Shown: positions 886 through 15,262 of the stretch, piece after piece
Numbering within the stretch: position 1 is the stretch's first letter
Layout: every line of letters begins with the position of its first letter
Source of the DNA: an uncultured Planctomycetota bacterium
GTDB lineage: Bacteria; Planctomycetota; Planctomycetia; Isosphaerales; Isosphaeraceae
Direction of reading: 5' to 3'
Length of the DNA: 64,000 nt
NCBI GenBank assembly: GCA_963823665.1
Contig: CAWGMQ010000003.1
Span: forward strand, 1,664,001-1,728,000
Translations under genes and position numbers: made by a program
Notes under the pieces: generated by a model
Seen by the model: only the letters and a program-made list of their open reading frames with translations
The model's database searches: none
What the model was told of the DNA's origin: nothing

Positions 886-1005
886 CGATTTCAGCGAAAG
901 CGCTTCGATAAACCGATTCACGCGCACGAATCCGCGGTGCCTCTCTCCGATCGATCAAAGCGGCTTCGAATCCCCGCTCGTCATCATCCGTTCGACTTCA
1001 AACCC

Positions 1006-1205
1006 ACATTCTTGAATTCTTCGCGCCTTCCCTTGGCGCCTTTGCGACTTTGCATGTGTATATCTTCATACAAACATTCTTGAATTCGTCGCGCCATGCC
1101 TTTGCGACTTTGCGTGAGCCCGTCTCCCCTTTTCCGTTCAATAACCCGGCCCAAATCGTCACTCCCATTCGCGTGAGCTTCTCCTCCCGTGATACCGCCC
1201 ACGCC
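1006..1205. repeat. Dispersed repeat, left copy (partly duplicated internally); similar to 14037-14178
   Basis: 1011-1053 matches 14037-14079 at 41/43 nt; second partial unit from 1074; weaker similarity continues to GATACCGCC near 1200. Confidence 0.75.
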
Positions 1206-1269
1206 CGCGTGTGCTCGGGCATTCCGGTAGGCGTAGCCTGCGATGGAAGACGCATTCTCACACTCGCGA

Positions 1270-1956
1270 TCAACTCTCGCCTGGAATCCTGCTCTTGCGA
1301 CCCGGTTTCTTCGCCTTCTTCACTCGCTTTTCATCCTCGATCGTATCAACATATTCATCGAGCCAGTCGACACCCCCGCGGAGGTTCATCATGAAACAGC
1401 GAACCTCGATGTCCCAGAGATGTTTCAGAGACTCGAGATCCGGGTTCTTCCCGTAGGAACGCTTGACGATCTCCCGGAATCTCCTGGAGATCGGATCCGT
1501 CTCGCCAGGAGGATACGGGTCGACTCGACGCTCGCGGCAATAGTTGTCGATATCAGCCTTGAGCAAGAACGCCTGGCGGCTGTGATCCTTATGCTCGGCC
1601 TCCAGGTCATAAATGTTGTGGCCGGCATCCGGGTCGTACTTCACGTACGACTGATCAAAAAACTCCGTGTAGGCACCGCAATCGCGGTGCTCGACAACGT
1701 ATACATATTTAATTTGATGGAGGCCCACGGCCAGGACCAGGTGATCGAAGAACGCCTTGTGCCAGGCAGGCATCTGCATGGCACCGGCCGCCGCTCCGGC
1801 CAGGATGAACTGGTCGAAGCGGTTTTCAAGGTTCTCGAAATTCATGAACTTCACCAGATTATCCAGCAACCTCAGGTCCATGCAGCTCAAAAGGAGCACG
1901 TTCTTGCGAGGGGAGGTGTGGGTCGTGCTCTGGTAATCGGCTTGGCTGACGTCCAT
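1270..1956 (-). CDS. Beta-class carbonic anhydrase-like protein
   Basis: SCMDLR (CxDxR) and EHRDCGAY (HxxC) zinc-ligand motifs; start chosen at MDVSQ. Confidence 0.8.
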   Translation of the reverse strand: MDVSQADYQSTTHTSPRKNVLLLSCMDLRLLDNLVKFMNFENLENRFDQFILAGAAAGAMQMPAWHKAFFDHLVLAVGLHQIKYVYVVEHRDCGAYTEFFDQSYVKYDPDAGHNIYDLEAEHKDHSRQAFLLKADIDNYCRERRVDPYPPGETDPISRRFREIVKRSYGKNPDLESLKHLWDIEVRCFMMNLRGGVDWLDEYVDTIEDEKRVKKAKKPGRKSRIPGES

Positions 1957-2153
1957 AGATCGGTCCCTGATAGTTTCCCTGTTCTCGTTCACGATCCCCA
2001 CTGCCCGATTGTAAGATAATTTCAATTCGAGGACGGCGCCCGAGTCCTCTCGATTCGCTGTTGGGCGACTTCGAGTTCGTGGGTGGATATCCGGCCGGTA
2101 TTGTGTTGCGATGGGATGCGGTAAGGCTATCATCAACATTAGAATGTGTTCAT

Positions 2154-2213
2154 GCCTGACGAGGCGATCCAGCGGACCCGCCTGCGGCGGGCCGCTGAAC
2201 TTTCGCGTCAAAT
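2154..2213 (+). repeat. attC-like site, short class
   Basis: GCCTGAC..GATCCAGCGGACCCGC..GCGGGCCGCTGAAC..GTCAAAT. Confidence 0.85.
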
Positions 2214-2231
2214 GGCTTCGGGGGAGCGAGC

Positions 2232-2483
2232 GTGAAAACTGTCGTCGTGGTGCCGATACGCGGCCAGGGCAACGCCTGGAAGGTGGCCGAGCCGTCGGAT
2301 CCGCCCGCCAGGGTGCAAGATCGCGTGGTCACGCTCGAGATCCAGGGCAACGCCGCAGAGGGTTACCACCTCGTGATGAGCCCGGCCGGCTGCTTCACCG
2401 CGGACACTTGGCACGCGAGCGTCGAGGATGCCAAGGCCACCGCCGCGAAACTGTTTGGTGTCCCTCCCCAAGAGTGGTCATAG
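2232..2483 (+). CDS. Cassette hypothetical protein (83 aa)
   Basis: GTG start after GGGGAG; fills the space between two attC-like sites. Confidence 0.75.
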   Translation: MKTVVVVPIRGQGNAWKVAEPSDPPARVQDRVVTLEIQGNAAEGYHLVMSPAGCFTADTWHASVEDAKATAAKLFGVPPQEWS

Positions 2484-2485
2484 CC

Positions 2486-2590
2486 GCCTAACCATGACGG
2501 ATCGGAGTCCGCGAAGCCAGACCTCCAATCAATGTACAACAAGCCCGGCGATGACCGCGCAGAGCCCTGAGCATGGGAAACGCTCGGCGG
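2486..2590 (+). repeat. Degenerate attC-like site, long class
   Basis: GCCTAAC just after the stop, central GTACAAC, CCCTGAGC right arm; R' unclear. Confidence 0.5.
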
Positions 2591-2599
2591 CAGGGTCGA

Positions 2600-2737
2600 T
2601 CAACGATCGGTAAGCCCTGCCGTCTTTATCGCCTGAGGGTTCGCACCGCAGTCGCCACGCAGCACTCCTGGCTTCGCGTGCACCTGATCGAGCAGTCCGG
2701 GCGGCCTTGCATCACTCGTCGCGTGACCATTCGTCAT
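2600..2737 (-). pseudogene. intI: Possible decayed 5' remnant of an integron integrase
   Basis: MTNGHATSDARPPGLLDQVHAKPGVLR resembles IntI N-termini (P-x-LLDQVR-x-x-x-R-x-x-HYS); divergent from the downstream cassettes; no catalytic domain. Confidence 0.35.
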
Positions 2738-2921
2738 CTTTCTATGTTTTCGTTTGGAATCCCAATTCTGCGTCCGTAGGATCATTTGAAATCGAGGACA
2801 GTGCCTGACTGCTCGGCAGTGTTTCCTGCTCGACGTTGGGCAGCACGTCCGGCGGAATGAGAAAAAACGCGGTTTCTGTCGAATTCTTGTGAGCACACGT
2901 TCAAGCCACACTGATCCCAAG

Positions 2922-3372
2922 ATGAAGCGTCCACTTCGCATCGGCAGCTTGGCGCAGTACATCGAGGCGACGAACTCCGTACGCGACTCATGGATCGGGA
3001 AAGGCGCGTACTTCGACCCCTGGTTCCGTGGGCACACCGACGCCGACTGGGAACTTACTGCTTCTCTGATTCGGCTCGGCCTCGAAGATCACGAGGACGC
3101 GATTCGATCGGAGCTCATTTGATCCACCCCACATCGCTCGCCGCGTCGCGGTTCAGCAGAGCCGATTCACGATTCACGGGACCGCGGCGAACGGAATTGA
3201 GTTGTTAGGGCGGCGGCGGGGTTCGCGTTTACAGAAGTTGGTAATTGACCAGGAAGCAATTGTTAAGGTGCGCGTTGACCTGTACACTGCCGGCATCACG
3301 GACACCAGTGTCTTCCCCGACCTCCAGGGGCTCAGCCAGGAACTCACTCGCTACTTCACGGACGACTGGTAG
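2922..3372 (+). pseudogene. FRG domain protein cassette with internal deletion and frameshift
   Basis: N-part WFRGHTDADWELTASLIR stops at 3122; another frame gives PPHIARRVAVQQSRFTIHG...GITDTSVFPDLQGL to TAG3372; central QHYG-x-PTRLLDW segment missing. Confidence 0.75.
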
Positions 3373-3433
3373 CAGAACACGCTTTAAGCTTGCAGGACGC
3401 TCGACGGCAGGATCGCTCAACGATCATTCAGGC
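3372..3433 (+). repeat. Degenerate attC-like site
   Basis: GCAGAAC overlapping the FRG stop; eroded arms; TTCAGGC at the end. Confidence 0.35.
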
Positions 3434-3515
3434 ATGCGCCGCTGGTCGTGACTCGAGTATCGGGCCGCGGACGCCATATTGTCGGCGGCAGCCACTTTGC
3501 GGTAGTCTCCAAGGT

Positions 3516-3719
3516 ATGAGCGTAGAAGAACTCCAGGCCGCCGTCGCACAGCTCCCCGCTGAGGAGCTCGATCGCTTTTCGCACTGGTTCGAGGAGTTCC
3601 TGGCGGATCAATGGGATCGGCGAATCGAGGCCGATATCCTGGCCGGGCGCCTTGAAGCCGCGGGCCGCCGCGCCGACGAGGACTTCGAAGCCGGCCGCTG
3701 CACGCCGCTCTCGCCGTGA
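3516..3719 (+). CDS. Putative type II antitoxin
   Basis: MSVEELQAAVAQLPAEEL...WDRRIEADILAGRL; stop overlaps toxin start (GTGA). Confidence 0.8.
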   Translation: MSVEELQAAVAQLPAEELDRFSHWFEEFLADQWDRRIEADILAGRLEAAGRRADEDFEAGRCTPLSP

Positions 3720-3973
3720 ACCACTTCGCCACCCCGGAGTTCTGGTTCCACTATCGCCGCCTACCGGCGGAAACCCGCGACCTGGCTGACCAATGCTTCG
3801 CGATGCTCCAAGCTGATCCGCGCCATCCGTCGCTGCGATTCAAGAAGGTCGGGGATTTCTGGTCTGCTCGTGTCGGTCTCCGCATCCGCGCGCTCGCGAG
3901 GCAGCGCCCCGAGGGCTTGGTCTGGTTCTGGATCGGTCCCCATGATCGCTACGAGCAACTGATCGCTCAATGA
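3716..3973 (+). CDS. RelE/ParE-like type II toxin
   Basis: FWFHYRRLP...DPRHPSLRFKKVG..WSARVG...WFWIGPHDRYEQL pattern. Confidence 0.85.
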   Translation: MNHFATPEFWFHYRRLPAETRDLADQCFAMLQADPRHPSLRFKKVGDFWSARVGLRIRALARQRPEGLVWFWIGPHDRYEQLIAQ

Positions 3974-4034
3974 ACGACAAGCGGACCCGCCCCAGCGGAC
4001 CCGCTCCGCGGGCCGGCGGTCTGCGGCGTTAGCC
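3969..4034 (+). repeat. attC-like site (partly degenerate)
   Basis: AATGAAC..CAGCGGACCCGC..GCGGGCCG..GTTAGCC. Confidence 0.7.
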
Positions 4035-4048
4035 TGCGGGAGGCGCGG

Positions 4049-4414
4049 ATGCTCGGGCTGCTCGAAGTTCTCTGGTGGCATCACTGGTCCTGTCCCCGAA
4101 CCATCGAGTCGGCCGCGCATGACTTCCTCAACGCTCGCAACCCGGAGCGAGTCAGGGCTGTCACGCACGTGGGATCGCGGGCCGCCTGGCCCATTCGCTG
4201 GCCCAACTGGAGGCTCAATCGACCGCGGTCGTAGCCGACACCGCGCGGCGGGCGATCCACGACGTGTGGCTGGCAATCGTCGACGATTACGAGAACGGTC
4301 GATCAAATCTGTCGAGCGCTTATCTCGCCAATGTTCATGCGAGGCTAGCGGCGGCTAGCTCGGGAGTACGCGAGACAGCAGGCGCCAGGCGGCGGCGCTC
4401 CGGGCATCGCATAA
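4049..4414 (+). pseudogene. Disrupted cassette ORF, hypothetical
   Basis: ATG after GGAGG; coding signal split over several frames; final frame ends at TAA inside R'' GCATAAC. Confidence 0.5.
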
Positions 4415-4506
4415 CCGTCGCTGCAACGGACCCGGCCCGCCGCGGCTTCGTGATACAATCCACGCTCGTGCTCGGTGGGCCGGGCCGCTGAGCTCATGCG
4501 TTAGGG
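4409..4506 (+). repeat. attC-like site, long class, TGATACAAT in central region
   Basis: GCATAAC..CAACGGACCCGGCCCGCC..GGTGGGCCGGGCCGCTGAGC..GTTAGGG. Confidence 0.9.
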
Positions 4507-4523
4507 GGCGGGGGGTCCACAAG

Positions 4524-4775
4524 ATGGTGGATGCATGTCCCAGTTGCGGCGCGCCAGTCGGCCAGCTTCACGAGCCGTTCTGCAACCGGGAGCTGTGTCC
4601 CTTCTGCGGCGACTTCATCACCACTTGCGACTGCATCTTCGAGGTGCTGTCGCTCACGGCCGAGGAGTGTGAGCTCGTCGAGAAGTTCGAGGACGACTCA
4701 GTCCAGCCCCTCCGGGGTATCTGCGACCGCTGGAGCGAAGCAGTTGAAGCCAAGGGGCGGGTTCCGTACGCTTGA
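4524..4775 (+). CDS. Cys-rich putative zinc-binding cassette protein
   Basis: CPSCG...H..FC...CPFCG...CDC. Confidence 0.75.
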   Translation: MVDACPSCGAPVGQLHEPFCNRELCPFCGDFITTCDCIFEVLSLTAEECELVEKFEDDSVQPLRGICDRWSEAVEAKGRVPYA

Positions 4776-4812
4776 GTCACTGCTTAAGCATCGGCGGCCT
4801 CAGCCGTGACAA

Positions 4813-4872
4813 CCCCTACATTGCGATGCAGCGGACCCGCCTGCGGCGGGCCGCTGATCCTTGTCGTCAGGC
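4813..4872 (+). repeat. attC-like site, short class
   Basis: CCCCTAC..GATGCAGCGGACCCGCCTGCGGCGGGCCGCTGATC..GTCAGGC. Confidence 0.85.
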
Positions 4873-4891
4873 CTGCACGGACCACGGACAC

Positions 4892-5209
4892 ATGGCAACG
4901 TGGCAATACGAGCTTGTGGACCCGCCCTTCGAACCTCGGGCTCGCGAACTCTGGCTGCAGCACGCTGCAGGGTTCATCATCTTTCAGGATGTTTGTGACA
5001 AGGCGACGGAATGTGCATGGGCTATCACGGCTGGCTCGAAGGTGATTTTGGCAAACATCCAGTCGCGGTATCGCGACCCAGCGAGGGTGATGGCGAGGCC
5101 CAGCCCTGACGAATCGCCGCGTCAGCCCCGGCCCCCGGCGATGCTTTGTGTTAGATTCGTGGCTGCGCCCGGCCAGCCCCTCGCACGCCGGGCGCGGAAC
5201 GCCGCCTGA
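4892..5209 (+). CDS. Cassette hypothetical protein (possibly internally deleted)
   Basis: MATWQYELVDPP...; TGA overlaps R'' GCCTGAC. Confidence 0.55.
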   Translation: MATWQYELVDPPFEPRARELWLQHAAGFIIFQDVCDKATECAWAITAGSKVILANIQSRYRDPARVMARPSPDESPRQPRPPAMLCVRFVAAPGQPLARRARNAA

Positions 5210-5307
5210 CCGGCGAGCCAGCAGACAAGCCAGTCGGCTGGCCGCTGTTCTTTAGTACAATCACGGCTCCGCCCGACGGTCGGTCCGCTAAGCTTTGGTC
5301 GTCAGGC
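5204..5307 (+). repeat. attC-like site, long class, TAGTACAAT in central region
   Basis: GCCTGAC..CAGCAGAC..GTCCGCTAAGC..GTCAGGC. Confidence 0.8.
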
Positions 5308-5320
5308 ACCGAGGAAATCA

Positions 5321-5608
5321 ATGTCTCCAGTCGTCCCCGAAGCGTGGAAGCCGCGGCTGCGGCAGTATCTCCGCCAGCGGCGTGGCGAGGAGCGCGACCG
5401 CCTCTCGGCCGATGATTTCCCACCGGGGCTGTGCGTCCTCATCCGCTTCCCCGATGGTTCCCACGTCCTCTTTCGGTATGCGTTCGCCATCCTGGATGAG
5501 GCGGCCGGCGAGGTCATCGTCTTCACGGAGCACTGCGGGTACCATGTATTTCCGCTCGGTGATGCCGAGGTCGAAGAACTGCAATCGTCGGATTCACGGG
5601 TCCGCTGA
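5321..5608 (+). CDS. Cassette hypothetical protein (95 aa)
   Basis: ATG after GAGGA; bounded by attC-like sites. Confidence 0.75.
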   Translation: MSPVVPEAWKPRLRQYLRQRRGEERDRLSADDFPPGLCVLIRFPDGSHVLFRYAFAILDEAAGEVIVFTEHCGYHVFPLGDAEVEELQSSDSRVR

Positions 5609-5609
5609 T

Positions 5610-5669
5610 GTCTAATATTGCGATGCAGCAGACACCGCTGCGCGGGGCCGCTGATCCGCGTTGTTAGCC
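5610..5669 (+). repeat. attC-like site, short class
   Basis: GTCTAAT..GATGCAGCAGAC..GGCCGCTGATC..GTTAGCC. Confidence 0.8.
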
Positions 5670-5687
5670 GAGGGGGGAAGGTGGACC

Positions 5688-6126
5688 ATGTCGTTCTCCG
5701 AGAACATGGCCAAGGTCGTGGCCGACCAGCTCGCTCGCTTCGTCACCCTCAACACGCATCAACTCGCTGGCCATGTGGCCAACCTCGACTTCTGGGTCTC
5801 TCAGGCCCGGCACGCCTTGGAGGTCATCGACGGCTACGAGCCACGATTCCGCCAGCTCAAGGCGGCGCAAGATCAGTACGTGGCCGAGCACCGGACCGAG
5901 AACCTTTCTGCCCAGCGACCCTGATATCCACGGGTCACCGGACCCGCCACGGCGTGTCGCACATGCGGCTCTGCGTGAGGCCCGTCGCTCGGTTACGGAG
6001 CCGACTTACCGCTTCCTGGTGCGCTGCTGCAACGACGGTCTGATCGCGGAGTCGAAGTTGCGAGCCATCTGCTTTAACCTGGATACCGGCGTCGAGTCCG
6101 CAGACATTCGTCGAAGACGGGGCTAA
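5688..6126 (+). CDS. Cassette hypothetical protein, frameshift near 5900
   Basis: MSFSENMAKVV... joins ...DPDIHGSPDPPRRV...RRRG; TAA inside GGCTAAC. Confidence 0.65.
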
Positions 6127-6181
6127 CGTTGCGATCCAGCGGACCCGCCTCGCGGCGGGCCCCGGAACTGGAGCTTCAGGC
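6121..6181 (+). repeat. attC-like site, short class, right end eroded
   Basis: GGCTAAC..GATCCAGCGGACCCGCC..GGCGGGCCCC. Confidence 0.75.
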
Positions 6182-6189
6182 GGCGCGAA

Positions 6190-6579
6190 ATACACCCTCA
6201 CGAGGCGGCGACAATTCGAGCATTTGTATCTCCGTCGCGTCGAGAGCGATGGCTCGGCCTCCTGGCATCGGCGAAGCGGCGTCGCTCGTTCCTCGGCCGA
6301 CTGAATCACTGCCGAGACATTGATGAACGATATGCCACGCCGGTTCCCTCGAGCGCCAACATCGCCGCAGTGCTCGGTTCTCATGGCGCACCGGAGACTT
6401 GCTACGTCCTCTCCGATATCCCGACGATAGACGGCCGGGAGTTACCCCTCGATGAGGCCATCGATCAGGTCGAGTTGGCCATGTGGGGAACACTCATCAG
6501 TTGCGTTCCCGGTCGCCTCGCGTACTACTATGATGAGTGTGGCGCTCGACGCTGGCTGCTACAGCGATCGACCGTTTGA
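6190..6579 (+). CDS. Cassette hypothetical protein, copy 1 (start reads ATA)
   Basis: 390-nt near-identical copy of 7812-8201. Confidence 0.7.
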   Translation: MHPHEAATIRAFVSPSRRERWLGLLASAKRRRSFLGRLNHCRDIDERYATPVPSSANIAAVLGSHGAPETCYVLSDIPTIDGRELPLDEAIDQVELAMWGTLISCVPGRLAYYYDECGARRWLLQRSTV

Positions 6580-6672
6580 CCCGGTGCTGCAGCGGACCCG
6601 CACGCCGCGGCGGCTTCTGGTACAATCGACAGCGGCTCGGGCGGGCCGGTCCGCTGAGCTTCGCTCTTGGAA
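6574..6672 (+). repeat. attC-like site, long class, TGGTACAAT in central region
   Basis: GTTTGAC..CTGCAGCGGACC..GGTCCGCTGAGC; R' degenerate. Confidence 0.8.
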
Positions 6673-6834
6673 GGTGATAACTATGCATGCGTGGGCGAGG
6701 CGAAACCTCGACGTCACTTACTATGCTCGATGGCTCAATCCGTATGCCCAGCATCGGTGACTTGGTCAAGTCTATCGAGTGTCGTGGGCTGGGCCTTGGG
6801 TCTCCTCGAAGCCGGCGGATTCGAGCTGGGGCGA

Positions 6835-6892
6835 GCCTGACGAGGCGATGCAGCGGGCCCGCTCCGCGGACCGCTAAATTCCGTCGTTAGGT
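6835..6892 (+). repeat. attC-like site, short class
   Basis: GCCTGAC..GATGCAGCGG..CCGCTAAAT..GTTAGGT. Confidence 0.8.
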
Positions 6893-6908
6893 TCAGCGGA
6901 GGTGAGCG

Positions 6909-7313
6909 GTGGCGCGACGCTGGAAGTTGTGGGTGATCGGGATCTCCGTCGCCGCTACCGCCGTCCTCCTGGGGTGGTGGGCGACCGGTAAGGTCCTAGC
7001 TCCTCCCCTGAGACCGGAGAACTTCAACCAATTGCGGACCGGGATGCCCCAGTCCGAAGTAGAAGAGTTGCTCGGCGGTCCGCCCGGCAACTACGGCCAC
7101 GGCGGTGAAGCGATGATGACGGACGAAGGGTTCCGCAGTCCGCCCGGGTCGGTCCAGCGGATCTGGTGCGATGACAAGAACAGGCTCGAGCTGTACTTCG
7201 ACACCCGGGCGCGATTGGTCGGGTACCACAAGCGGGCGGGCTATACCCAGTCCCCGCCCGACGGATTCTTGGCTCGTCCGTGGCAGTCGAGTCGACGATT
7301 CTTGGGGCTCTGA
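6909..7313 (+). CDS. Membrane-anchored cassette protein with SmpA/BamE-like motif
   Basis: N-terminal hydrophobic segment; ENFNQLRTGMPQSEVEELLGGPPG. Confidence 0.7.
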   Translation: MARRWKLWVIGISVAATAVLLGWWATGKVLAPPLRPENFNQLRTGMPQSEVEELLGGPPGNYGHGGEAMMTDEGFRSPPGSVQRIWCDDKNRLELYFDTRARLVGYHKRAGYTQSPPDGFLARPWQSSRRFLGL

Positions 7314-7348
7314 CCAGAGCGACGTCGGGCCTGACCTTGGCGTTAGCC
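7308..7348 (+). repeat. Internally deleted attC-like site (41 bp)
   Basis: CTCTGAC ... GTTAGCC with L boxes largely missing. Confidence 0.55.
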
Positions 7349-7361
7349 CGCGAGGGCACCG

Positions 7362-7748
7362 GTGAGACGTTCTCGAAAGGATAGCCGACGCCGCATCACC
7401 ATCGATGGCGTGGTCTACCGCTATCGTGTCTCTCCCAACAATGGCTTCATCACACTCACCGCGAAACCGAAAGGTTTCCGCGGGCAATTGCTCTCGGTCA
7501 CCTACGGCTACCACGACGATTGGGTGCCAGTCGGCGGCGGGGCTTTTACCTCAGGCGGTCACCGCCTCATACTGCCGCGTGTGGTGCGCCAGGCGATACT
7601 CGAAGGGCTGCGTCGAGGCTGGGATCCGATGGCATCAAAGCCGGGTGTATTCCGGGTGCATGATGGCGACAGCTTGCCCCAGGAAGACGAATGGCCCCGC
7701 TTCACTTCAGACCGGTCAACCTCGAAGCCATCGGGTGGCGTGCGCTAA
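7362..7748 (+). CDS. Cassette hypothetical protein (128 aa)
   Basis: RRITIDGVVYRYRV...ILPRVVRQAILEGLRRGWDP. Confidence 0.75.
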   Translation: MRRSRKDSRRRITIDGVVYRYRVSPNNGFITLTAKPKGFRGQLLSVTYGYHDDWVPVGGGAFTSGGHRLILPRVVRQAILEGLRRGWDPMASKPGVFRVHDGDSLPQEDEWPRFTSDRSTSKPSGGVR

Positions 7749-7803
7749 AACTGCGGTCTAGCGGACCCGCCTGGCGGCGGGCCCCTGATCTGGGACGTTC
7801 GGC
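7743..7803 (+). repeat. attC-like site, short class
   Basis: CGCTAAA..TAGCGGACCCGCC..GGCGGGCCCCTGATC..GTTCGGC. Confidence 0.8.
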
Positions 7804-7811
7804 GGCGGAAA

Positions 7812-8201
7812 ATGCACCCTCACGAGGAAGCGACAGTTCGAGCATTTGTATCTCCGTCGCGTCGAGAGCGATGGCTCGGCCTCCTGGCATCGGCGAAGCG
7901 CCGTCGCTCGTTCCTCGGCCGACCGAATCACTGCCGAGACATTGATGAGCGATATACCACGCCGGTTCCCTCGAGCGCCAACATCGCCGCACTGCTCCGT
8001 TCTCATGGCGCACCGGAGACTTGCTACGTCCTCTCCGATATCCCGACGATAGACGGCCGGGAGTTACCCCTCGATGAGGCCATCGATCAGGTCGAGTTGG
8101 CCATGTGGGGAACACTCATCAGTTGCGTACCCGGTCGCCTCGCGTACTACTATGATGAGTGTGGCGCTCGACGCTGGCTGCTACAGCGATCGACCGTTTG
8201 A
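7812..8201 (+). CDS. Cassette hypothetical protein, copy 2 (129 aa)
   Basis: Intact ATG; duplicate of 6190-6579. Confidence 0.8.
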   Translation: MHPHEEATVRAFVSPSRRERWLGLLASAKRRRSFLGRPNHCRDIDERYTTPVPSSANIAALLRSHGAPETCYVLSDIPTIDGRELPLDEAIDQVELAMWGTLISCVPGRLAYYYDECGARRWLLQRSTV

Positions 8202-8294
8202 CCGTGTGCTCCAGCGGACCCGCCCGCCGCGGCGTTTCTGCTACAATCAAGGTTCCGCCCGGCGGACCGAACCGCTAAGCTTTGGTCGTTAGGT
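8196..8294 (+). repeat. attC-like site, long class, TGCTACAAT in central region
   Basis: GTTTGAC..CTCCAGCGGACC..CCGCTAAGC..GTTAGGT. Confidence 0.85.
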
Positions 8295-8311
8295 GGCAGA
8301 GACTGCAGGCC

Positions 8312-8929
8312 ATGAGTGATCGAATCGGCGTCGCAACGATCTGCTTGCACAGTAGCTCTGCCATCTATTTGATCGCGGGCTTGGCCTTTCTCGGCTATTC
8401 GCGATTGCCAGCTCAGCCAACGAACCTGCCCTCGGAAGCAGGGTTGGTAGGCTGCATTACCTGCCTCACATTGGCTGCGGGCATCGAGCTGGTGGCTCGT
8501 GGCCTCCGGCGCCGAAGGTATTGGGCATGGGTCGCCGGCGTGTGCATCCTCACGCTCTACGTCCCAACTGTGTTCTTGCCCCTCGGGGCCCTAGGGCTCT
8601 GGGCCCTCCTGACGCCAGCAACAAGAGCCTTGTTCGGCGTCGGACCATTGACCTCGATATCCAGGCGTCCCGGATCGGTGTCCATGACAACCGTCGCGTT
8701 CCGCCTGCTCCTTCTAACAATCGCCTTGACCGGCGTCGCGGTCGCTTACGTCCATTTATCGGGCGTAGGCATGCCACCGTATTCGCCAGTGCCGGACCCT
8801 TCCGAACTCGAGCGGATTCACCGTCTCGTGGGCCTCGCCTTATTCGCGGTCGCTGCGCTCTCCGCCGCCTTATCGATCGCGGCTCTAGCCGCCGTTATAT
8901 TGGTCCGATATCGTCGTCGGCCCCCCTGA
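8312..8929 (+). CDS. Cassette multi-pass membrane protein
   Basis: Several hydrophobic segments; TGA inside CCCTGAC. Confidence 0.7.
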   Translation: MSDRIGVATICLHSSSAIYLIAGLAFLGYSRLPAQPTNLPSEAGLVGCITCLTLAAGIELVARGLRRRRYWAWVAGVCILTLYVPTVFLPLGALGLWALLTPATRALFGVGPLTSISRRPGSVSMTTVAFRLLLLTIALTGVAVAYVHLSGVGMPPYSPVPDPSELERIHRLVGLALFAVAALSAALSIAALAAVILVRYRRRPP

Positions 8930-8984
8930 CCCGGCGATCCAGCGGACACGTCTGTTGCCCGGCCGCTGATCTTTAGCGTTAGCC
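8924..8984 (+). repeat. attC-like site, short class
   Basis: CCCTGAC..GATCCAGCGGAC..GGCCGCTGATC..GTTAGCC. Confidence 0.85.
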
Positions 8985-8987
8985 GCC

Positions 8988-9385
8988 ATGGGAGAACCCG
9001 TGCAAGGTTCGAGCGCTGTCGAGGTAGTAATTGAGTACTGGCGCCTCATGGGCACCAATGACTTTGCTGCCGTCGGTGCCGTGCTGGCGCCCGAGTTCGT
9101 CCTCGAGTGGCCGCTGTCGCGCGAGCGCATTCGCGGGGCAGAGCGTTTTGCCCGGATGAATGCGGAGTACCCTGCCCATGGCCGTTGGTCCTTCACGGTC
9201 AATCGCTTGGTTGGCGGTCAGTCGGAAGCGGTCTCCGACGTCACGGTCACCGACGGAGTGCAAACCGCAAGGGTCATATCGTTCTTCGAGGTCAGCGGCG
9301 ACAAGATCACGCGGCTGGTCGAGTTCTGGCCCGAGCCGTATGAACCGCCTGCCAATCGGCGCATCTCGTGGAGCGCATGCAATGA
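8988..9385 (+). CDS. SnoaL-like / NTF2 family protein (frameshift near 9360)
   Basis: EWPLSRERIRG..F..MNAEYP..GRW...EFWPEPY; restoring 1 nt gives ANRAHLVERMQ* ending in R''. Confidence 0.8.
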
Positions 9386-9483
9386 CCCGCGCTGCAGCAG
9401 ATCCGAACCGCCGCCGAGCTTTGTGGTAAGATCGACGCGATGCGAGGCCCGGCCTGCCGGGCCGCTGAGCTCCGGCGTTACGC
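9380..9483 (+). repeat. attC-like site, long class, TGGTAAGAT in central region
   Basis: CAATGAC..CTGCAGCAGATCCG..CGGGCCGCTGAGC..GTTACGC. Confidence 0.8.
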
Positions 9484-9498
9484 AGCAGGGTCTGGCTG

Positions 9499-9840
9499 AT
9501 GCAACGGTTCCTGTTTGAATACATCGAGTTGTTCTCCTTCATCGGCGCCGGCACTCCGGAGGAGCCTGGCGGGGACTTCACCATGTACTGCTGGATCTCG
9601 GCGCCGGACAAGGCGGCTGCACTGGCATGGGGGTACGTCCTGATCGGCGACTACTGCAAGGCGCGATACGCGCACTCGGCAGACGGCCATCGGCACGACG
9701 GATCGCCGATCGAGGAGGGAGAGATCGTCGAAGACCCCGGGGTACTTGCTGCTGCCGTGCATTGGGATATTCCTGCATGCCGCGTCGGTGAGGTCCCCGA
9801 ATGGCGCGAGCCGTGGCGGTTATCCAACACCGGGAGATAG
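9499..9840 (+). CDS. Cassette hypothetical protein (113 aa)
   Basis: ATG 16 nt after R'; acidic protein. Confidence 0.65.
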   Translation: MQRFLFEYIELFSFIGAGTPEEPGGDFTMYCWISAPDKAAALAWGYVLIGDYCKARYAHSADGHRHDGSPIEEGEIVEDPGVLAAAVHWDIPACRVGEVPEWREPWRLSNTGR

Positions 9841-9845
9841 GCCAA

Positions 9846-10235
9846 GTGAAGCGCACGTGGACGATCATTGGGGTAGCCGATGTGGCCGGCAGCTTCAAAT
9901 GGTACCAGTCGCTCTTCGGCCAGCCGGAGATGCGTCCCGCCCATGACGACTTCGGGCAAATCCTCGACTCGGATGGCACGGTCTTGCTCTGCCTTCACGC
10001 GTGGGGTGCCCACGAGCATCCCTCCTTGATGAGCCCCGATCACGGGAAGCCTGGGAATGGCCTCCTCTTGTTCTTCCGTGTAGACGATTTCGACATGGCC
10101 CTGCCAAGGGCACGGGCTCTCGCCTCTCAGCTCGAAGCGGAGCCCCACGTGAACCCGAACACAGGAACCATGGAGTTCTCGCTCCGAGATCCAGACGGGT
10201 ATTATGTCACGATTAGTGCGCTCTCTGCGGCCTGA
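9846..10235 (+). CDS. VOC / glyoxalase family protein
   Basis: IIGVADVAGSFKWYQSLFG...LFFRVDDFD...EFSLRDPDGYYV. Confidence 0.9.
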   Translation: MKRTWTIIGVADVAGSFKWYQSLFGQPEMRPAHDDFGQILDSDGTVLLCLHAWGAHEHPSLMSPDHGKPGNGLLLFFRVDDFDMALPRARALASQLEAEPHVNPNTGTMEFSLRDPDGYYVTISALSAA

Positions 10236-10275
10236 CCACTCGCTCAATCGCACCGGCGCATCCTGGTTCATTCAG

Positions 10276-10734
10276 ATGACACAGGTCCGTCCTTCTAGCC
10301 TGCTGCTGTTCACCTTGGCGATATGTGCCGCGGGGTGCCGGAGCGCACCGGACCCGGACCCCCTGCCCCATACCAGTAGCGTTCGAGGTATCAAGGCGAG
10401 GTACTTCGACCCGACGACGAAACAGAAGCTGGAATTCGACGTACCGCGTAGCCATTGGGTTCCGATCATCTCGGCGATGAGGCCGAACCGTTCCGACCCG
10501 CAGCCGGCGGACTGGATGGTCCTCGGCGAACTGCGGATTACCCAGTTGGATGGGAGTCCGTTTTTCGTGGGCATGTATTCCATCCGAAGCGGGGAGGGGG
10601 CGTTCTCGGCGGGCGCGAGCTTCGAGAAGCGGTTATACTACAGGGGCGGGAGTACGCCCGACCTCGTCCGCGCCCTGAACGCCGCCTATGCGCAGTTCAG
10701 CGGCAAGCGAGGCGATGCGACGGATGCGAAATAG
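10276..10734 (+). CDS. Putative lipoprotein cassette
   Basis: LLLFTLAICAAGC lipobox. Confidence 0.7.
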   Translation: MTQVRPSSLLLFTLAICAAGCRSAPDPDPLPHTSSVRGIKARYFDPTTKQKLEFDVPRSHWVPIISAMRPNRSDPQPADWMVLGELRITQLDGSPFFVGMYSIRSGEGAFSAGASFEKRLYYRGGSTPDLVRALNAAYAQFSGKRGDATDAK

Positions 10735-10738
10735 CCCA

Positions 10739-10789
10739 GTCTAACGAGACGCTGCAGCCGATCCGCCTGTCGGCGGGCGGTCGTTACCA
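10739..10789 (+). repeat. attC-like site with shortened right arm
   Basis: GTCTAAC..CTGCAGCCGATCCGCC..GGCGGGCGG..GTTACCA. Confidence 0.65.
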
Positions 10790-10848
10790 GGCAGAGAGAG
10801 ATACGAGGAGCGCACGCAGTAACCCGCGCCACAGATGAGAGGGTTGAG

Positions 10849-11205
10849 ATGGCGAAACACTTGCACAAAGGCGACGAGACACGGCGTCGCTGGAAGATTA
10901 TCGATGCCTCGCGGTCTGGTGACGCGAGCCTGCTGCCGCAGCTCCTCGCCCGCCTCGACGGCGGCGAGACCTACGATAATAGGCGCCATATCGTCCGGGC
11001 ACTCGGCAACATCGGCGGACCGCGATCCGAGGCCAAACTTCTTGAGTTGCTCGGCAGCGAGCGCGGGCTTATCCTCGGTGATATCGCTCGGGCTCTCGGC
11101 GAAATCGGCTGTCATCGAGCCGCCAATCCGCTTGAGAGTTTGCGCACGCACGAATCCGAGTGGGTTCGCCAGAATGTCACATTTGCGCTTCGACGGCTCT
11201 CATAG
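10849..11205 (+). CDS. HEAT repeat protein
   Basis: Repeated RALGNIGG / RALGEIG / WVRQN helical units. Confidence 0.85.
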   Translation: MAKHLHKGDETRRRWKIIDASRSGDASLLPQLLARLDGGETYDNRRHIVRALGNIGGPRSEAKLLELLGSERGLILGDIARALGEIGCHRAANPLESLRTHESEWVRQNVTFALRRLS

Positions 11206-11208
11206 CAT

Positions 11209-11240
11209 GGCTAACAATGCGATGTCGGAACTTGTCAGGC
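11209..11240 (+). repeat. Collapsed attC remnant (32 bp)
   Basis: GGCTAAC-AATGCGATG...GTCAGGC with the central stem deleted. Confidence 0.55.
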
Positions 11241-11305
11241 GTGGACGCGGCCCTCAAGCGCACGCCCAAGGGCCTTACAGGTGAAGGCCCAAACGGGAGC
11301 AGTTG

Positions 11306-11854
11306 ATGGCGTTATCCGACGACGACCTCCGGCGTAGTTTCGAGGCCTTCGAGAACCGCAAACGATATCCAGTGCTCGCACCCAGCGTCTTCGCTGGCAT
11401 CGGCGACGAGTCGGTCGAGCAGGCGATCCTCGATTTCGTCGAGATGAAGGTTGGTCGCAACTCGAAGCGCCAGTACAAGATCGTGACGGCGCTCCCATTC
11501 GGCATTCAAGCCGTTTACACAACCTACTTCCTTGATGCCGAGGTCCGCAATGGCGGCTTCAACCAGTACTTCTGGAATTCCACCGGTCAATTTGCAATCG
11601 AGGCCTTGGACGGACTTCGCTTCTTCGGCGCTACTGATCACGCGAGACTCCTCGAGGGCGCAGTTCAGACTTACATGCGAGAGGCACCCATTCTCACGCG
11701 ATTCCGCATGCGCAACACACTCAAGGCTTTCAGCACGTCGTACAAAGCTACCAGTCTCACCGAATTCGACCAACCGTGGTACCGGTTTCCGTCAATTAGC
11801 CCGCTGCGCGTCAGCCGAATTCGCGCCGAGCCAAGCCTCTTCTCCGCAAGATAG
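11306..11854 (+). CDS. DUF4375 / DMP19 family protein
   Basis: LDAEVRNGGFNQYFWNSTG motif. Confidence 0.85.
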   Translation: MALSDDDLRRSFEAFENRKRYPVLAPSVFAGIGDESVEQAILDFVEMKVGRNSKRQYKIVTALPFGIQAVYTTYFLDAEVRNGGFNQYFWNSTGQFAIEALDGLRFFGATDHARLLEGAVQTYMREAPILTRFRMRNTLKAFSTSYKATSLTEFDQPWYRFPSISPLRVSRIRAEPSLFSAR

Positions 11855-11969
11855 CACTGCCCGCGGGCGTACAAAGCGCCGCCGCTAACATGCGGATATG
11901 CTGGAGTCGCGGGTCAAGCTAGTATGGGAGTTGTTCGCGGATGTGCCGCCGGACACCTTGCCCACGGAC

Positions 11970-12022
11970 GGCTAACGAGCCGATCCAGCGGACCCATGGG
12001 CCGCTGATCTGGGGCGCTACGG
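11970..12022 (+). repeat. attC-like site, short class
   Basis: GGCTAAC..GATCCAGCGGACCC-AT-GGGCCGCTGATC..GCTACGG. Confidence 0.8.
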
Positions 12023-12038
12023 GCGGGAGGTTCACCCT

Positions 12039-12464
12039 TTGCGGATCACGCTCACTCGCTTCACCTCCGGGCTGCTTCGCGTCCTGCTTACGCCGATCGT
12101 CCTACCGATCAAGTTGTTGAGCGCGGTGACGGGGCGGGGCAAGAAGCCGGCTTATGCGAGCACCATTGCCGGCGATCCGCTCGCGTACTCCGGCGACAGG
12201 CCCGTCCTCATCGCCGTCTGGGCATCATGGGCGGGGGTGTGGCGTGCAGCAACCGAGCAGGTCGTCGAGCAATTGCGCGGCGAGTTCGCCGGCAGTTGCG
12301 AGTTCGCGTATGTCGAGTGCGACAGCAGCACCATCAAAGACGCCTATCGTGCCGATGTCGTGCCGGTCCTGATCTTGCGGCATCGGGGTCACGAGTTGGC
12401 CCGCTTCGTCAACACGCTTGAGGCCGCTAGAGTACGGCAGGCGATCGCAGAAGTTGCCGCCTGA
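12039..12464 (+). CDS. Thioredoxin-fold protein lacking CxxC
   Basis: PVLIAVWASWAGVW...VPVLILRHRGHELARFV; TTG start after GGAGG. Confidence 0.7.
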   Translation: MRITLTRFTSGLLRVLLTPIVLPIKLLSAVTGRGKKPAYASTIAGDPLAYSGDRPVLIAVWASWAGVWRAATEQVVEQLRGEFAGSCEFAYVECDSSTIKDAYRADVVPVLILRHRGHELARFVNTLEAARVRQAIAEVAA

Positions 12465-12557
12465 CCTGGCGCCGCACTGGCCCAGGCCCGCCGCGGCGAC
12501 TTTCGCGGTATCACGGCTTTGCTCCGCGGGCCTGGCCGCTGAGCTTGCTTGTTTGAC
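12459..12557 (+). repeat. attC-like site, long class
   Basis: GCCTGAC..CCAGGCCCGC..GGTATCAC..GCGGGCCTGGCCGCTGAGC..GTTTGAC. Confidence 0.8.
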
Positions 12558-12575
12558 AGCAGCGGGGCGAGTCAC

Positions 12576-13097
12576 ATGCGGATCCGGAAGGCGAGTGAGT
12601 CAGATGCGGAGGCGATCACGGCCGTACACATCGCTTCGATGCGGGAGGCGTATCGTACGCTCGTACCGCCCGAGGCGCTCGCGGGATTCGACGCGCAGGA
12701 CCGGACTCAGCGGTGGCGTGAGGTTCTCGCCGAGGGAACATCGACCACCCTGCTCGCGGAAGCCGGCGGCGAGCCCTTCGGCTTCGCCAGCTTCGGGAGG
12801 TGCCGGGATGAAGACATCTCGCCGGGGGCGGTCGGCGAGGTGATGGCCATCTACGTCCGCCCTGATGCCTGGGGCCAAGGCGTCGGTAGGGCGCTGCTGC
12901 GCGAGGCGCTCGATCGGCTGCGCAGTGACGGATTCGCCGAGGTGTCGCTATGGGTGATCGAGGCGAATCGGCAAGCGATCGAGTTTTACGAGCGGTTCGG
13001 GTTCCTCCGCGATGGCTCGCTTCGCCGCCATGAGATGCTCGGGACTCCTACGGTCATCATTCGGATGCGGTTGCGGTCGGGTATGGATACCGTCTAA
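12576..13097 (+). CDS. GNAT family N-acetyltransferase
   Basis: IYVRPDAWGQGVGRALL and NRQAIEFYERFGF motifs. Confidence 0.92.
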   Translation: MRIRKASESDAEAITAVHIASMREAYRTLVPPEALAGFDAQDRTQRWREVLAEGTSTTLLAEAGGEPFGFASFGRCRDEDISPGAVGEVMAIYVRPDAWGQGVGRALLREALDRLRSDGFAEVSLWVIEANRQAIEFYERFGFLRDGSLRRHEMLGTPTVIIRMRLRSGMDTV

Positions 13098-13107
13098 CAC
13101 TCTCGGA

Positions 13108-13467
13108 TTGCTGGTTCTACTACTGGTCGTCGCCGCCCCAATAGCCTGGTTCGCCTCGGAGTTCCAGGATCGGCGCTGGCTGTGTCTCGCCTTGGGTACC
13201 TTGACCATCCTGCTCTCCTTCGGCGTCGCGGCCCTGGTCGGATCGCTGGAGCGGTTCAATTCCAACGCCTGGTTCGGTCGCGCCACGAAGGAACTGATCG
13301 ACGCCGCGGTCACTGAACTGGAGGCAGGCAACCCGGCTCGGGTTCTGCGCTCGCTCAAAGACTTGCAGGGGCAATACACGCCCACCTACGAGAACCGAGC
13401 GCGATACGATATGCTGGTGCAGGAAGCGGTGAAGGAGATGCGATCGCCGGAGGGAAAGGCCCACTGA
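13108..13467 (+). CDS. Cassette membrane protein, probably 5'-truncated
   Basis: Two hydrophobic segments plus YTPTYENRARYD; begins just after a lone R'' GTCTAAC; start uncertain. Confidence 0.6.
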   Translation: MLVLLLVVAAPIAWFASEFQDRRWLCLALGTLTILLSFGVAALVGSLERFNSNAWFGRATKELIDAAVTELEAGNPARVLRSLKDLQGQYTPTYENRARYDMLVQEAVKEMRSPEGKAH

Positions 13468-13612
13468 CATCGCGATTCGACAAAGCTCACCCTCCCGGCC
13501 ACCACGAGTTGATCGGGGTCGGGCACTCTTGCTTCGGTGTCGGCGATCAGGCGGCGATCGTGGACAACCTGTTCGCCAATATCCAGAGCGTTCGGCACCG
13601 AGCGAGCAGACA

Positions 13613-14011
13613 ATGAAAATCTGGCAGCTAGCCATCACGCTGATCGTCTTGATCGTCTTGCGTGAGGTGTCCGGAAACCTCCTGATGCGACTTACGGGGT
13701 TGGCTGTGCTGGCCAATTTCGGGGGGCTGGCCATCGGCTCGTTCTTCTCCGGATGGCTGGCCGGTGCAATCAGCGAGCTCGGTCCTTCCCGTGGCCAGCT
13801 CTGGAGCTTGGCCGCGCTGGGTGTCATCGCAGCGATCGGGATTGGTTTCATCCAGGGTGCGAACTTTCTGGCGGTGGCCGTGGTATTCATGGTGCTGATC
13901 AACATACCACTGTCGTACGGTTGCCTACTCCTCGGTGCCCACGTCGCGGAGCCCCGCACAAAGATCCAGCCGCCGCCTCTAGAAGAGGATAGCCTCGGTT
14001 CGGACCCTTAG
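13613..14011 (+). CDS. Membrane protein, last ORF of the array
   Basis: Four hydrophobic segments; preceded by GTTCGGC at 13590. Confidence 0.7.
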   Translation: MKIWQLAITLIVLIVLREVSGNLLMRLTGLAVLANFGGLAIGSFFSGWLAGAISELGPSRGQLWSLAALGVIAAIGIGFIQGANFLAVAVVFMVLINIPLSYGCLLLGAHVAEPRTKIQPPPLEEDSLGSDP

Positions 14012-14036
14012 GCTTCACATGCATCCGCCGAGCTCG

Positions 14037-14178
14037 CTTGAATTCTTCGCGCCCTCCCTTGGCGCCTTTGCGGCTTTGCGTGATCCCATCTTCCCTGTTT
14101 CGCTGTGCTTCATTCCGGCCCGCATCTTCACTCCGATTTGCCTGATCAACTCTTCGCGCGATACCGCCAAAGCCCCGA
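14037..14178. repeat. Dispersed repeat, right copy
   Basis: CTTGAATTCTTCGCGCC...CTTTGCGGCTTTGCGTGA...GATACCGCC, similar to 1006-1205. Confidence 0.75.
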
Positions 14179-15140
14179 TTACGCAAACTCGGGATCGGTC
14201 ACTCCATCTCGACAGGCCTTTGCGTCCACGCCCTTGCGGGCAAGTTCCACCACAGCCCGATACCCCGGCATCGTCGAGTCCAGCGAAATTGTCTGCCCGT
14301 CGATCGCATGAATCCGCGCTCGCTCGATCGACGGCCCATCCACGTCCTGGCCCCGTTTCACATCGATTGAGTCAACACTTGAGAATGGAATCGATCGCCT
14401 GAGAAAAATGCTCCATAGCGCCAGCCCGGTCGGGTTCACCGTCAACTTCCGCGAGATCAATTCCAGACTGAGCATCGCCAGAAGCGGCGACGCGGCCACC
14501 GCCAGCACGCTGAGGTACCACACCGCGGGCGAATCGTCTACACGGCCGCTACCGGCCAGGTTGAGCCCGGATAAACCCCCGACCAAGAAGATCGGAACCA
14601 TCGTCGCCATCATCATGAACCCGACCGTCCTGGTCGGCCGGAACGACCCTCCGTGCTTGGCCAGATCGCGCAGGCCCTCCTCGCGCAAGGCGGCAAGACG
14701 AGGCTCGAGTCGCGCACGCAACTTCGAGCCCTCGAGCAGGTAATGAAATCGAATCGGAAGCCGCGTGCCATCCCGTCCATACAAAAACATGCGCCCGAAC
14801 GTCTTCTCAATCCCTTTGAAGCCGGTTGGGCACGACTCTTCGAAGCGAACCAGATCACTCCAGGCGACGACGCTTCGCCACCCCGAGGCGTGCCGTGTGA
14901 TCCCCTGATCATCCAGTGTGAAGCTGCGCCTGCCTCACCGGCTGCCAAAACCAGGAAAATCGCGGCGGCCGTCAGGCCCCCCATCAGGAAAATCGCCGCC
15001 GCGCAAGTTACCAGGTCGAACGTATGGATTTGGGGAACGGCCAGGCTGATGATTAAACCAGCGAAACACAGCAGCAAGCCACCCGTCAGCGCAAAAACCG
15101 CCGCCACGCCCCTATCCCCCTCGTATCGCTCCACGTCCAT
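14179..15140 (-). CDS. Membrane protein with probable bacterial PH-like domains (frameshift near 14915)
   Basis: ORFs 14613-15140 and 14179-14790 join; TM pairs followed by LTVNPTGL...IPFSSV pattern. Confidence 0.6.
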
Positions 15141-15215
15141 CGCTCCCCTGCCGGTCAGCTCGAATTCCGCGCAAATCTATTCGCTGCCAAACACCACCTA
15201 TTTCGCAACTCCCGC

Positions 15216-15262
15216 CGCCCCAACGGGGCGAAGGTCAATAGCCAGGGGCTTCCAGCCCCTGG
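15216..15262. repeat. REP-like double hairpin
   Basis: CGCCCC-AAC-GGGGCG and CCAGGGGCT-TCC-AGCCCCTGG. Confidence 0.6.

Follow-up and report, generated by a model that had tools for sequence, protein, structure and literature searches.

A decaying integron cassette array without an integrase in an Isosphaeraceae genome, and a promoter-like box in the loops of its long attC sites

Under the standard integron model, promoterless gene cassettes are expressed from one common cassette promoter (Pc), and the cassettes distal to it form a silent reserve. We analyzed a window of 64,000 nucleotides (nt) from an uncultured Isosphaeraceae bacterium (Planctomycetota; G000:C3:1664001-1728000, from an assembly of 16.5 Mb in 12 contigs that is 92% complete), in which a cassette array without an integrase occupies positions 2154-14011 on the plus strand and forms a decaying, variable region between conserved flanks. 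We are nearly certain that this array is a set of clustered attC sites that have no integron-integrase (CALIN). As a CALIN it is ordinary; what makes it of interest is a promoter-like loop in its class of long attC sites. Judged from sequence, the reading that we favor with fair confidence is that the array has no integrase in the assembled genome, that its core boxes have decayed, and that the box in the long attC loops is likely a promoter of the next cassette.

Statements on published systems refer to the available portions of each source. A 2016 survey found 279 CALINs, 95% of them without a nearby intI pseudogene and 83% with fewer than six sites (PMC4889954). The window array resembles these in having at least two co-oriented attC sites, no intI gene or pseudogene nearby, and cassettes mostly of unknown function. 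It differs in being larger than most of them, in being both orthologous and reordered in two integrase-less species, and in the extended -10 box of its long sites. Chromosomal attC sites of the same phylum are known from Planctomycetes, and a taxon model for them exists (Ghaly et al. 2021, PMC8352920), but the word 'promoter' does not occur in the main text of that paper as available, whereas the window sites carry a promoter-like box. The available portion of PMC3518468 likewise holds nothing on promoters in attC.

Pc-independent transcription from a start at or in an attC has been described in two single cases. In DAT722, one promoter bridges an attC junction (PMC2945992), while in the gene-less cassette F2 one scattered transcription start site lies inside attC, which its authors link to possibly spurious transcription (PMC11014356). 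What we propose is similar, namely a Pc-independent start at or in attC that would drive the next cassette, but here the loop contains the entire box, always at one offset within the class, and an attC class in 20 of the 53 genera searched shows it conserved. Promoters also occur in the 5' untranslated regions (UTRs) of cassettes such as cmlA, qac, ereA, qnrVC and toxin-antitoxin (TA) cassettes (PMC8876359), and in gene-less cassettes (PMC11014356). These likewise make expression independent of array position; however, they lie in the cassette body, whereas the window box is part of the recombination site that ends the cassette before it and would drive the neighbor of that cassette. Work on single attC sites lacking integron-integrases (SALINs) and on insertion at attG (10.1101/2022.09.11.507474) offers a further parallel, as G000 has scattered single sites and small clusters; cassettes inserted at attG depend on a resident promoter, whereas an attC with a promoter in it would supply one itself, pointing downstream of the insertion. 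Our literature search, with subscription papers and supplements outside its scope, found neither a promoter-bearing attC class nor planctomycete promoter data, and the variant is apparently undescribed so far.

The original prediction for this stretch was of co-oriented short open reading frames (ORFs) parted by related imperfect palindromes of two size classes, and an arm-profile scan with its controls bore this out. The profile was trained on the window's own sites and scores two-armed sites; it replaced a strict generic attC grammar, for which only 4 of 16 matches were real sites. We found 14 scored sites, all on the plus strand between 2154 and 12557, eight of them 53-61 bp and six 98-105 bp in length. 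At a lower threshold, the profile returned 13 sites in the window, all within 2154-12022, compared to 1, 1, and 0 matches in shuffled windows and 0 in the reversed window. A covariance model (R1) that we built from eight short window sites, and which is circular as a test of those sites, added a degenerate short site at 3980-4034 (E 8e-5). The total is therefore 15 two-armed sites on one strand (nine short and six long), where at least two define a CALIN. The predicted number of about 24 palindromes is reached only when about nine one-armed or deleted remnants are counted as well.

Each site consists of R'', a 5-nt spacer, L'' (which contains one additional C, with an additional A following three bases later), the loop, L', a 6-7-nt spacer, and R'. 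This fits the published definition of attC as an imperfect R''-spacer-L''...L'-spacer-R' palindrome of 57-141 bp with an unpaired spacer of 5-6 nt (PMC5027507), and only site 11970 falls below that length range, by 3-4 bp. The two extra bases, which had been noticed from the sequence at the outset, give the bottom strand extrahelical bases (G, then T) on its R''-L'' arm, and they bulge out in the folds of sites 2154 (z -4.1) and 4813 (z -2.6). The expectation that the bottom strands fold as attC hairpins held for these two sites, but six other sites were weaker (z -1.9 to +0.2), several of them folding no better than shuffles (8196, z -0.9; 9380, z +0.2). Intact relatives of the window sites fold at z -3.6 and -4.3, and in 48 box-bearing sites of the family, the extra-C column has a mean pairing probability of 0.19 compared to 0.68-0.98 for its neighbors. 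The short sites are at 2154-2213 (the best-folding site, with a GAC/GTC core), 3980-4034, 4813-4872, 5610-5669, 6121-6181, 6835-6892, 7743-7803, 8924-8984, and 11970-12023 (loop shortened).

Such repeats could in principle be repetitive extragenic palindrome (REP)-like or terminator-like palindromes rather than attC, in keeping with an Rfam search of the repeats that gave no match and with covariation on eight short sites that was no better than in shuffles. However, near-identical short and long sites occur in arrays next to intact intI genes of the family, which largely refutes this explanation, and the R''-spacer-L''/L'-spacer-R' layout with both extrahelical bases, the strict one-strand orientation, and a cassette shared with a complete integron also argue against it. 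We regard it as very improbable. The attC/CALIN reading is supported by the canonical layout, by cassettes that recur in a complete integron and in another G000 array on contig C7, and by the changed order in a relative.

The original prediction saw no intact integrase nearby, and we could extend this absence to the whole assembly. The TIGR02249 profile (cut-off, 265 bits) had no match above the cut-off in G000, with a best score of 112.6 bits, so the proposed genome-wide search for an integrase acting in trans came back empty. With a family IntI as the query, only pieces 31-57% identical were found in G000 and in G001, a same-genus relative (assembly 84% complete), none of them on contig C3, and no tyrosine recombinase was found on that contig. 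The top TIGR02249 matches in G000 were rejected as IntI for want of the IntI-specific middle segment and are presumably Xer-type or transposase-associated recombinases. At the window array, we did not find the intI adjoining attI that characterizes a complete integron, and an attI-like motif was seen in G001 only. Among 121 Isosphaeraceae genomes from 53 genera that form our comparison set, 35 have an IntI above the cut-off, and it is in arrays beside these genes that near-identical short and long sites occur. In G000, model R1 matched 40 places with an E of 1 or less, some of them clustered on C7, C10, and C11; the further clusters and single sites of this genome (C7:270401-282100; C11:650542-653079; C11:889169-890169; C10:536956-537851; C6:382082) are all without intI. 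The original account stands for the array itself, but it had overlooked these further arrays, the decay, and the -10 box of the long sites. In the relative G011, we also observed a tyrosine-recombinase and transposase element (L052:12900-14500), presumably IS91-like by its motifs, directly at the candidate attI of an integron, and similar elements are the top IntI-model matches in G000.

Four of the six long sites of the window carry the pattern TGn-TAnnnT in the loop: TGATACAAT at 4451-4459 in site 4409-4506, which is the sole scored site with both AAC and GTT; TGGTACAAT at 6618-6626 in site 6574-6672; TGCTACAAT at 8239-8247 in site 8196-8294; and TGGTAAGAT at 9424-9432 in site 9380-9483, which folds no better than shuffles. 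The box of a long-site remnant at 5101-5203 reads TGTTAGATT (5149-5157). Site 5204-5307 is a chimera with a short-type left part and a long-type right part and has TACAAT at 5256-5261 without the TG, and site 12459-12557 has a degenerate box (TATCAC, 12509-12514). All four plus-strand occurrences of TACAAT within 1-15300 lie in long attC loops, with a fifth site having TAAGAT and the sixth having TATCAC. In the chimera, the two parts are joined exactly at G/TACAAT (5250-5262), a fusion that might have arisen when an integrase inserted DNA into a long-site loop, and G001 has a similar short/long fusion at the homologous cassette.

In extended -10 elements of the sigma70 family, TGn precedes TAnnnT, and A2 and T6 are the positions under the strongest constraint. 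We surveyed 176 unique sites, collected mostly with a left-arm pattern that excludes the loop; 118 of these are long, and 86 long sites were left after removal of near-duplicates. TGnTAnnnT occurred in 41 of the 86 on the top strand, in 2 on the bottom strand, and in 0.7 (maximum, 3) of shuffled loops, the real count having used a window 4 nt wider per side than the shuffles. For TAnnnT, the corresponding numbers were 56, 6, and 11.0 (maximum, 24). The box is mostly at offset 48 and points at the next cassette. T was present at the sixth position in 46 of the 48 sites starting with TA but in only 9 of the 32 other sites, while the 17 complete hexamer variants differ freely inside, with positions 3 and 4 carrying 0.33 and 0.56 bits. 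On a site tree built without the box, the sixth T and the G of TG each required 1 parsimony change compared to 20, 15, and 8 changes at the inner positions and 10-23 at other loop positions. Presence of the box was not clustered on the tree (26 changes compared to 28.6 shuffled), though this tree may be poorly resolved. Together, the sixth T, the A2, and the TGn pattern fit an extended -10 element.

The box-bearing class recurs in the family. When GTDB genomes were scanned for exact copies of the long repeat's left arm, 100 stretches were returned; the 80 matches listed, Tautonia records among them, come mostly from Isosphaeraceae or other Planctomycetota, which makes a host of that family probable; the pattern of attC with the box had 100 matches in 33 of the 121 family genomes and 20 of the 53 genera, compared to 1 match for the control. 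The same pattern had no match in 401 genomes across the phylum, a set without any positive-control genome, this one included. The box is missing from a subfamily of long sites whose stem differs and whose loops are rich in pyrimidines (G112, G013, G110, and others); it co-occurs with box-bearing sites in the same genomes and represents a natural negative control.

We also examined the promoters of the host. Within 150 nt upstream of the 30 best-scoring of 77 host tRNA genes, TTG(A/C)nn-16/18-TAnnnT was present in 16 of 30 cases, compared to 1 antisense match and 0.48 in shuffles, and the tRNA hexamers TATCAT, TAACAT, TAGAAT, and TATGAT also occur in attC loops. Read from these sequences, the host's tRNA promoters appear to use the TAnnnT hexamer class.

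These findings suggest that the loop box of the long attC sites probably functions as a promoter. The -35 position of box-bearing sites falls in the GC-rich stem (CGGCCC in 32 sites), which points to a -35-independent TGn-TAnnnT promoter; for sigma70, dependence on the TG extension would accord with an absent -35 element. The predicted transcript would begin within the loop, some 7 nt past the box, and run some 35 nt through the right arm and R'. In long sites, 39-45 nt separate the box from the G of R', and the next start codon comes about 17-30 nt further. The next gene, starting 15-30 nt past R', would thus be reached within about 50-70 nt of the transcription start. Since such a transcript holds only the right arm, the hairpin could not form in the RNA. 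A single-strand (hairpin) promoter that would prime expression on excised circles was considered and set aside, as the box is in the top-strand loop and not in the stem; once a cassette is excised as a circle, its box would point toward the gene of that very cassette.

We lean, by a small degree, toward a broader interpretation in which these sites are a bifunctional attC class, combining the IntI hairpin with a selected, -35-independent loop promoter that amounts to a portable Pc and is kept as the boxes decay after integrase loss. Each long attC would move with its cassette and drive whichever cassette sits behind it, so that distal or stranded cassettes would remain expressed even where no integron platform exists. 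Across the 17 long sites found in G000 and G001, the R and L boxes agree with the consensus at 0.81 compared to 0.94 elsewhere and the right stem at 0.81 compared to 0.90, while the four key box bases have not dropped (0.74 compared to 0.72), although this comparison is weakened by a reference set that was mostly chosen by the exact left-arm pattern, which favors intact sites, and by one mis-joined site that was kept.

Several further observations count against a promoter. About half of the long sites have no box, and since long sites are homologous, their counts are not independent and P values overstate the case. The TG extension is not enriched upstream of host tRNA genes (4/30 compared to 2.1 in shuffles) and is present in only 2 of the 16 tRNA promoter matches. 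Genome-wide, TGnTAYMAT was 1.5 times as frequent as its reversed control (350 versus 230) and was more often outside called genes (22/30 versus 13/30; P 0.035), but it was aimed at a nearby same-strand gene in 7 of 30 cases compared to 4 of 30 controls, which is not significant, in a test whose gene calls covered only 59% of the sequence.

It is conceivable, if distinctly less probable, that the array is a CALIN whose loop box is no promoter at all but an inherited AT-rich apex that aids extrusion of the hairpin or cruciform, a strand skew, or the site of another DNA-binding protein. Loops do affect folding and strand choice (PMC5027507), and all sites share ancestry; moreover, the commonest form of the box, TGGTATCA, is near-palindromic, and a CA that follows the box offers the TG a pairing partner (pairing about 0.4). 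A purely structural role, however, predicts neither a fixed T-A-n-n-(A)-T with free inner positions nor 17 variants, of which TACAAT, TAGAAT, TAAGAT, and TATAAT break the palindrome. The key bases are unpaired, with the two key T bases at pairing 0.10 and 0.16 in the bottom strand, and box-less long sites exist beside IntI, which indicates that recombination does not need the box. We therefore retain a promoter as the preferred reading of the box.

Decay of the array is apparent in its core boxes. In the 14 scored sites, R'' has AAC in 3 and GAC in 8, R' has GTT in 8, and only 1 combines AAC with GTT; by comparison, 33 homologous IntI-linked sites have AAC in 31 and GTT in 30. TGAC was found in 10 of 31 sites in G000, 6 of 23 in G001, and 0 of 33 in the IntI-linked loci. 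We read about nine one-armed or deleted remnants by eye, at 2486, 5101, 7308-7348, 10230, 10739, 11209-11240, 11883, 13092, and 13462, with those at 10739 and 11209 also giving weak covariance-model matches (E about 0.06). Genes are broken too: the gene at 5688 is frameshifted (its counterpart on C7 is intact), the first copy of a duplicated cassette has lost its ATG, and the gene at 13093 is truncated. Self-complementary cassette ends, which the original prediction reported for three cassettes, are perfect at 4866/5204 and 5663/6121 but match at only 5 of 7 bases at 4500/4813; overall, ends are perfect in 2 of 18 candidate window cassettes compared to 8 of 12 neighbor pairs in two IntI-linked arrays.

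The original prediction also held that the array might be served in trans, and it may still be live if IntI resides on an unassembled part of the genome or on a passing mobile element. We consider this improbable, though several points speak for it: the cassettes postdate the split of the two species and are ordered differently in them, many family genomes have IntI, good folding persists at a few sites, and with wild-type attI1 a GTC core is as proficient in recombination as a GTT core (PMC2811028, Table 4). No IntI or fragment of one was found in either assembly, AAC and GTT are kept together in just one scored site and perfect ends in few cassettes, about nine sites are remnants, and frameshifts or truncations affect several genes. 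For IntI1, recombination of a GTC core is normal when the partner is GTT but is 5.6e-3 when the partner is GTC (PMC2811028, Table 4). A separate GTC-specific integrase was set aside as an explanation, since GAC is present at low rates in IntI-bearing genomes and GTC x GTC recombination is poor with IntI1. Two points detract from a reading of integrase loss and decay: the assemblies are incomplete, so that an intI could be unassembled, and the GAC variant is also found in the IntI-bearing genomes G104 (10 GAC versus 34 TAAC) and G021 (5 versus 59) and so is not purely decay. We nevertheless conclude with good confidence that no integrase currently serves the array.

The history of the array can be followed in its relatives. 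In G001, the same locus lies between the same flanking genes but spans 36.6 kb compared to 12.2 kb in G000 and has 16 scored sites. Seven cassette stretches are common to both loci at 89-94% identity. Their order is TA, 5258, SnoaL, VOC, HEAT, 13096, 13613 in G000 and TA, SnoaL, VOC, HEAT, 13613, 5258, 13096 in G001; this comparison of relatives had been suggested with the original prediction, and it did not return an identical gene order. The cassette at 7326-7802 is 85% identical to one in the IntI-bearing integron of G021, and the cassettes at 5665-6127 and 13100-13448 recur in the second G000 array (C7:270-282 kb). At four-fold sites, G000 and G001 are 0.84 identical in array genes (481 sites, 9 genes) compared to 0.71 in the flanks (5056 sites in 27 ORFs, including two overlapping wrong-frame ORFs that raise the flank value), which suggests that the array DNA moved or was acquired after the species split. 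Directly after the shared left flank, G001 also has an attI-like stretch that agrees with the candidate attI of G026 at 16 of 19 bases; it lies upstream of a carbonic-anhydrase-like gene, with too little room for intI. We envisage that IntI built and reshuffled the array after the species split and then was lost or left, as the family context and the changed order suggest, and that deletions and recombination between attC repeats have since eroded it.

Homologous recombination, conversion, or deletion between the attC repeats or duplicated cassettes of a longer ancestral array could instead have produced the order differences and mosaic sites without an integrase, which as the full account we think doubtful. 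The two copies of the duplicated cassette (6175-6672 and 7797-8294) are 96% identical in the body (390/406) but 73% identical in attC (74/101), and site 8196 is closest to site 6574 on its left (0.85) and to site 5204 on its right (0.83). The long sites appear as mosaics with breakpoints near the box. The block at 5258 shared with G001 begins inside a long attC loop instead of at the crossover point in R', and deletions at microhomologies are seen at some junctions. Other shared blocks, however, do begin at R' (5663 compared to C7; 7342 compared to G021), a deletion-only move of a cassette past three others needs ancestral duplicates, none of which were seen, and the origin of the cassettes would be left unexplained. 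Integrase-free recombination has likely acted in addition to the integrase, as a second process.

The cargo of the array matches what was predicted, with domain matches for TA, GNAT, VOC, and SnoaL genes (the ParE-like match being weak) and additional HEAT, DMP19, and weak thioredoxin matches. The TA-like pair (67 and 85 amino acids; 3516-3973) has a ParE-like match below the cut-off (PF24732, E 0.0014) and is also found in G001, where a TAGTCT 7 nt before the ATG of the antitoxin-like gene (3503-3518) is kept; this is a possible leaderless promoter of the pair. The cassette at 5663-6181 has the perfect ends GTTAGCC/GGCTAAC and a short attC at 6121-6181, and its frameshifted gene is 85% identical to the intact C7 copy. 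The duplicated cassette follows as copy 1 at 6175-6672 (start codon lost; long attC at 6574-6672) and copy 2 at 7797-8294 (ORF 7812-8201; long attC at 8196-8294). Between them, the cassette at 7342-7803 (ORF 7362-7748) has a decayed short attC at 7743-7803, while its G021 copy has an intact one; the window site has lost AAC, has both L boxes changed, and is identical at 48 of 61 positions. Further downstream are a SnoaL-like gene whose frame continues through attC (8988-9383; PF12680, E 1.2e-11), a glyoxalase/VOC gene (9846-10235; PF00903) followed by an attC remnant at 10230 that is a two-armed long attC in G001, a HEAT-repeat gene (10849-11240; PF13646) with an internally deleted attC (11209-11240), a DMP19-like gene (11306-11854; PF14300, E 1.1e-19), and a GNAT acetyltransferase gene (12576-13097; PF00583, E 1.8e-22) that is below the cut-off for every named NCBIfam family. 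The last two cargo genes lie within 13093-14011 (13093-13467, 5'-truncated, and 13613-14011) and are present in G001 in another order. All of these genes are on the plus strand.

Other features lie near the left end. The array was predicted to start at 2154, and it is present there but likely began further left, as a probable decayed cassette at 685-890 indicates. This region (645-905, plus strand) has an ORF at 709-885 between an R'-like GTTACCG at 685 and an R''-like remnant after the stop, and the right-arm profile scores 9.4 at 667; at the corresponding position, G001 has the attI-like motif together with a stretch resembling attC. We assign it as the first cassette with low confidence. 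A carbonic-anhydrase-like gene in the opposite orientation (1270-1956, minus strand; weak PF20393 match) is not an integrase and travelled with the array; it is present in 3 of the 121 family genomes and has a four-fold-site identity to G001 of 0.87, similar to the cassettes. It appears as young as the cassettes and lies inside the array if the G001 attI-like site marks the array start. Directly upstream of the first scored attC is a candidate Pc-like promoter (TTGCGA-16-TATCAT, 2106-2133, plus strand) of the form seen in host tRNA promoters, but the pattern is not significant by itself, with 2 found compared to 3.7 expected in shuffles. A non-coding element of about 135 bp (2486-2620, plus strand) opens with an R''-like GCCTAAC and has a partial copy at 3397-3437; 86-87% identical copies in G001 and the C7 array end in R'-like sequence, and it is possibly a third, diverged attC class. 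Broken gene fragments at 2889-3372, of which 2889-3122 has weak PADLOC PDC-S15 matches (best E 7.5e-6), possibly represent a decayed defence cassette.

The variable region has related direct repeats close to its two ends (1011-1206 and 14037-14175; 77-86% identical), both of them downstream of a gene on the minus strand, and a pattern derived from them found few other copies among the loci examined. A minus-strand hairpin at 15216-15262, upstream of a 965-amino-acid gene at 15297, resembles Rfam Acido-Lenti-1 at 29.5 bits, under the gathering score of 37, and has many 84-96% identical copies in G001.

If the loop box is indeed a promoter, arrays of this kind would be expressed along their whole length, and the order of cassettes would determine not only the distance of a gene from Pc but also which gene comes after a site that bears a promoter. 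A promoter borne by attC would then explain both the expression and the persistence of long arrays and of CALINs that lack a Pc.

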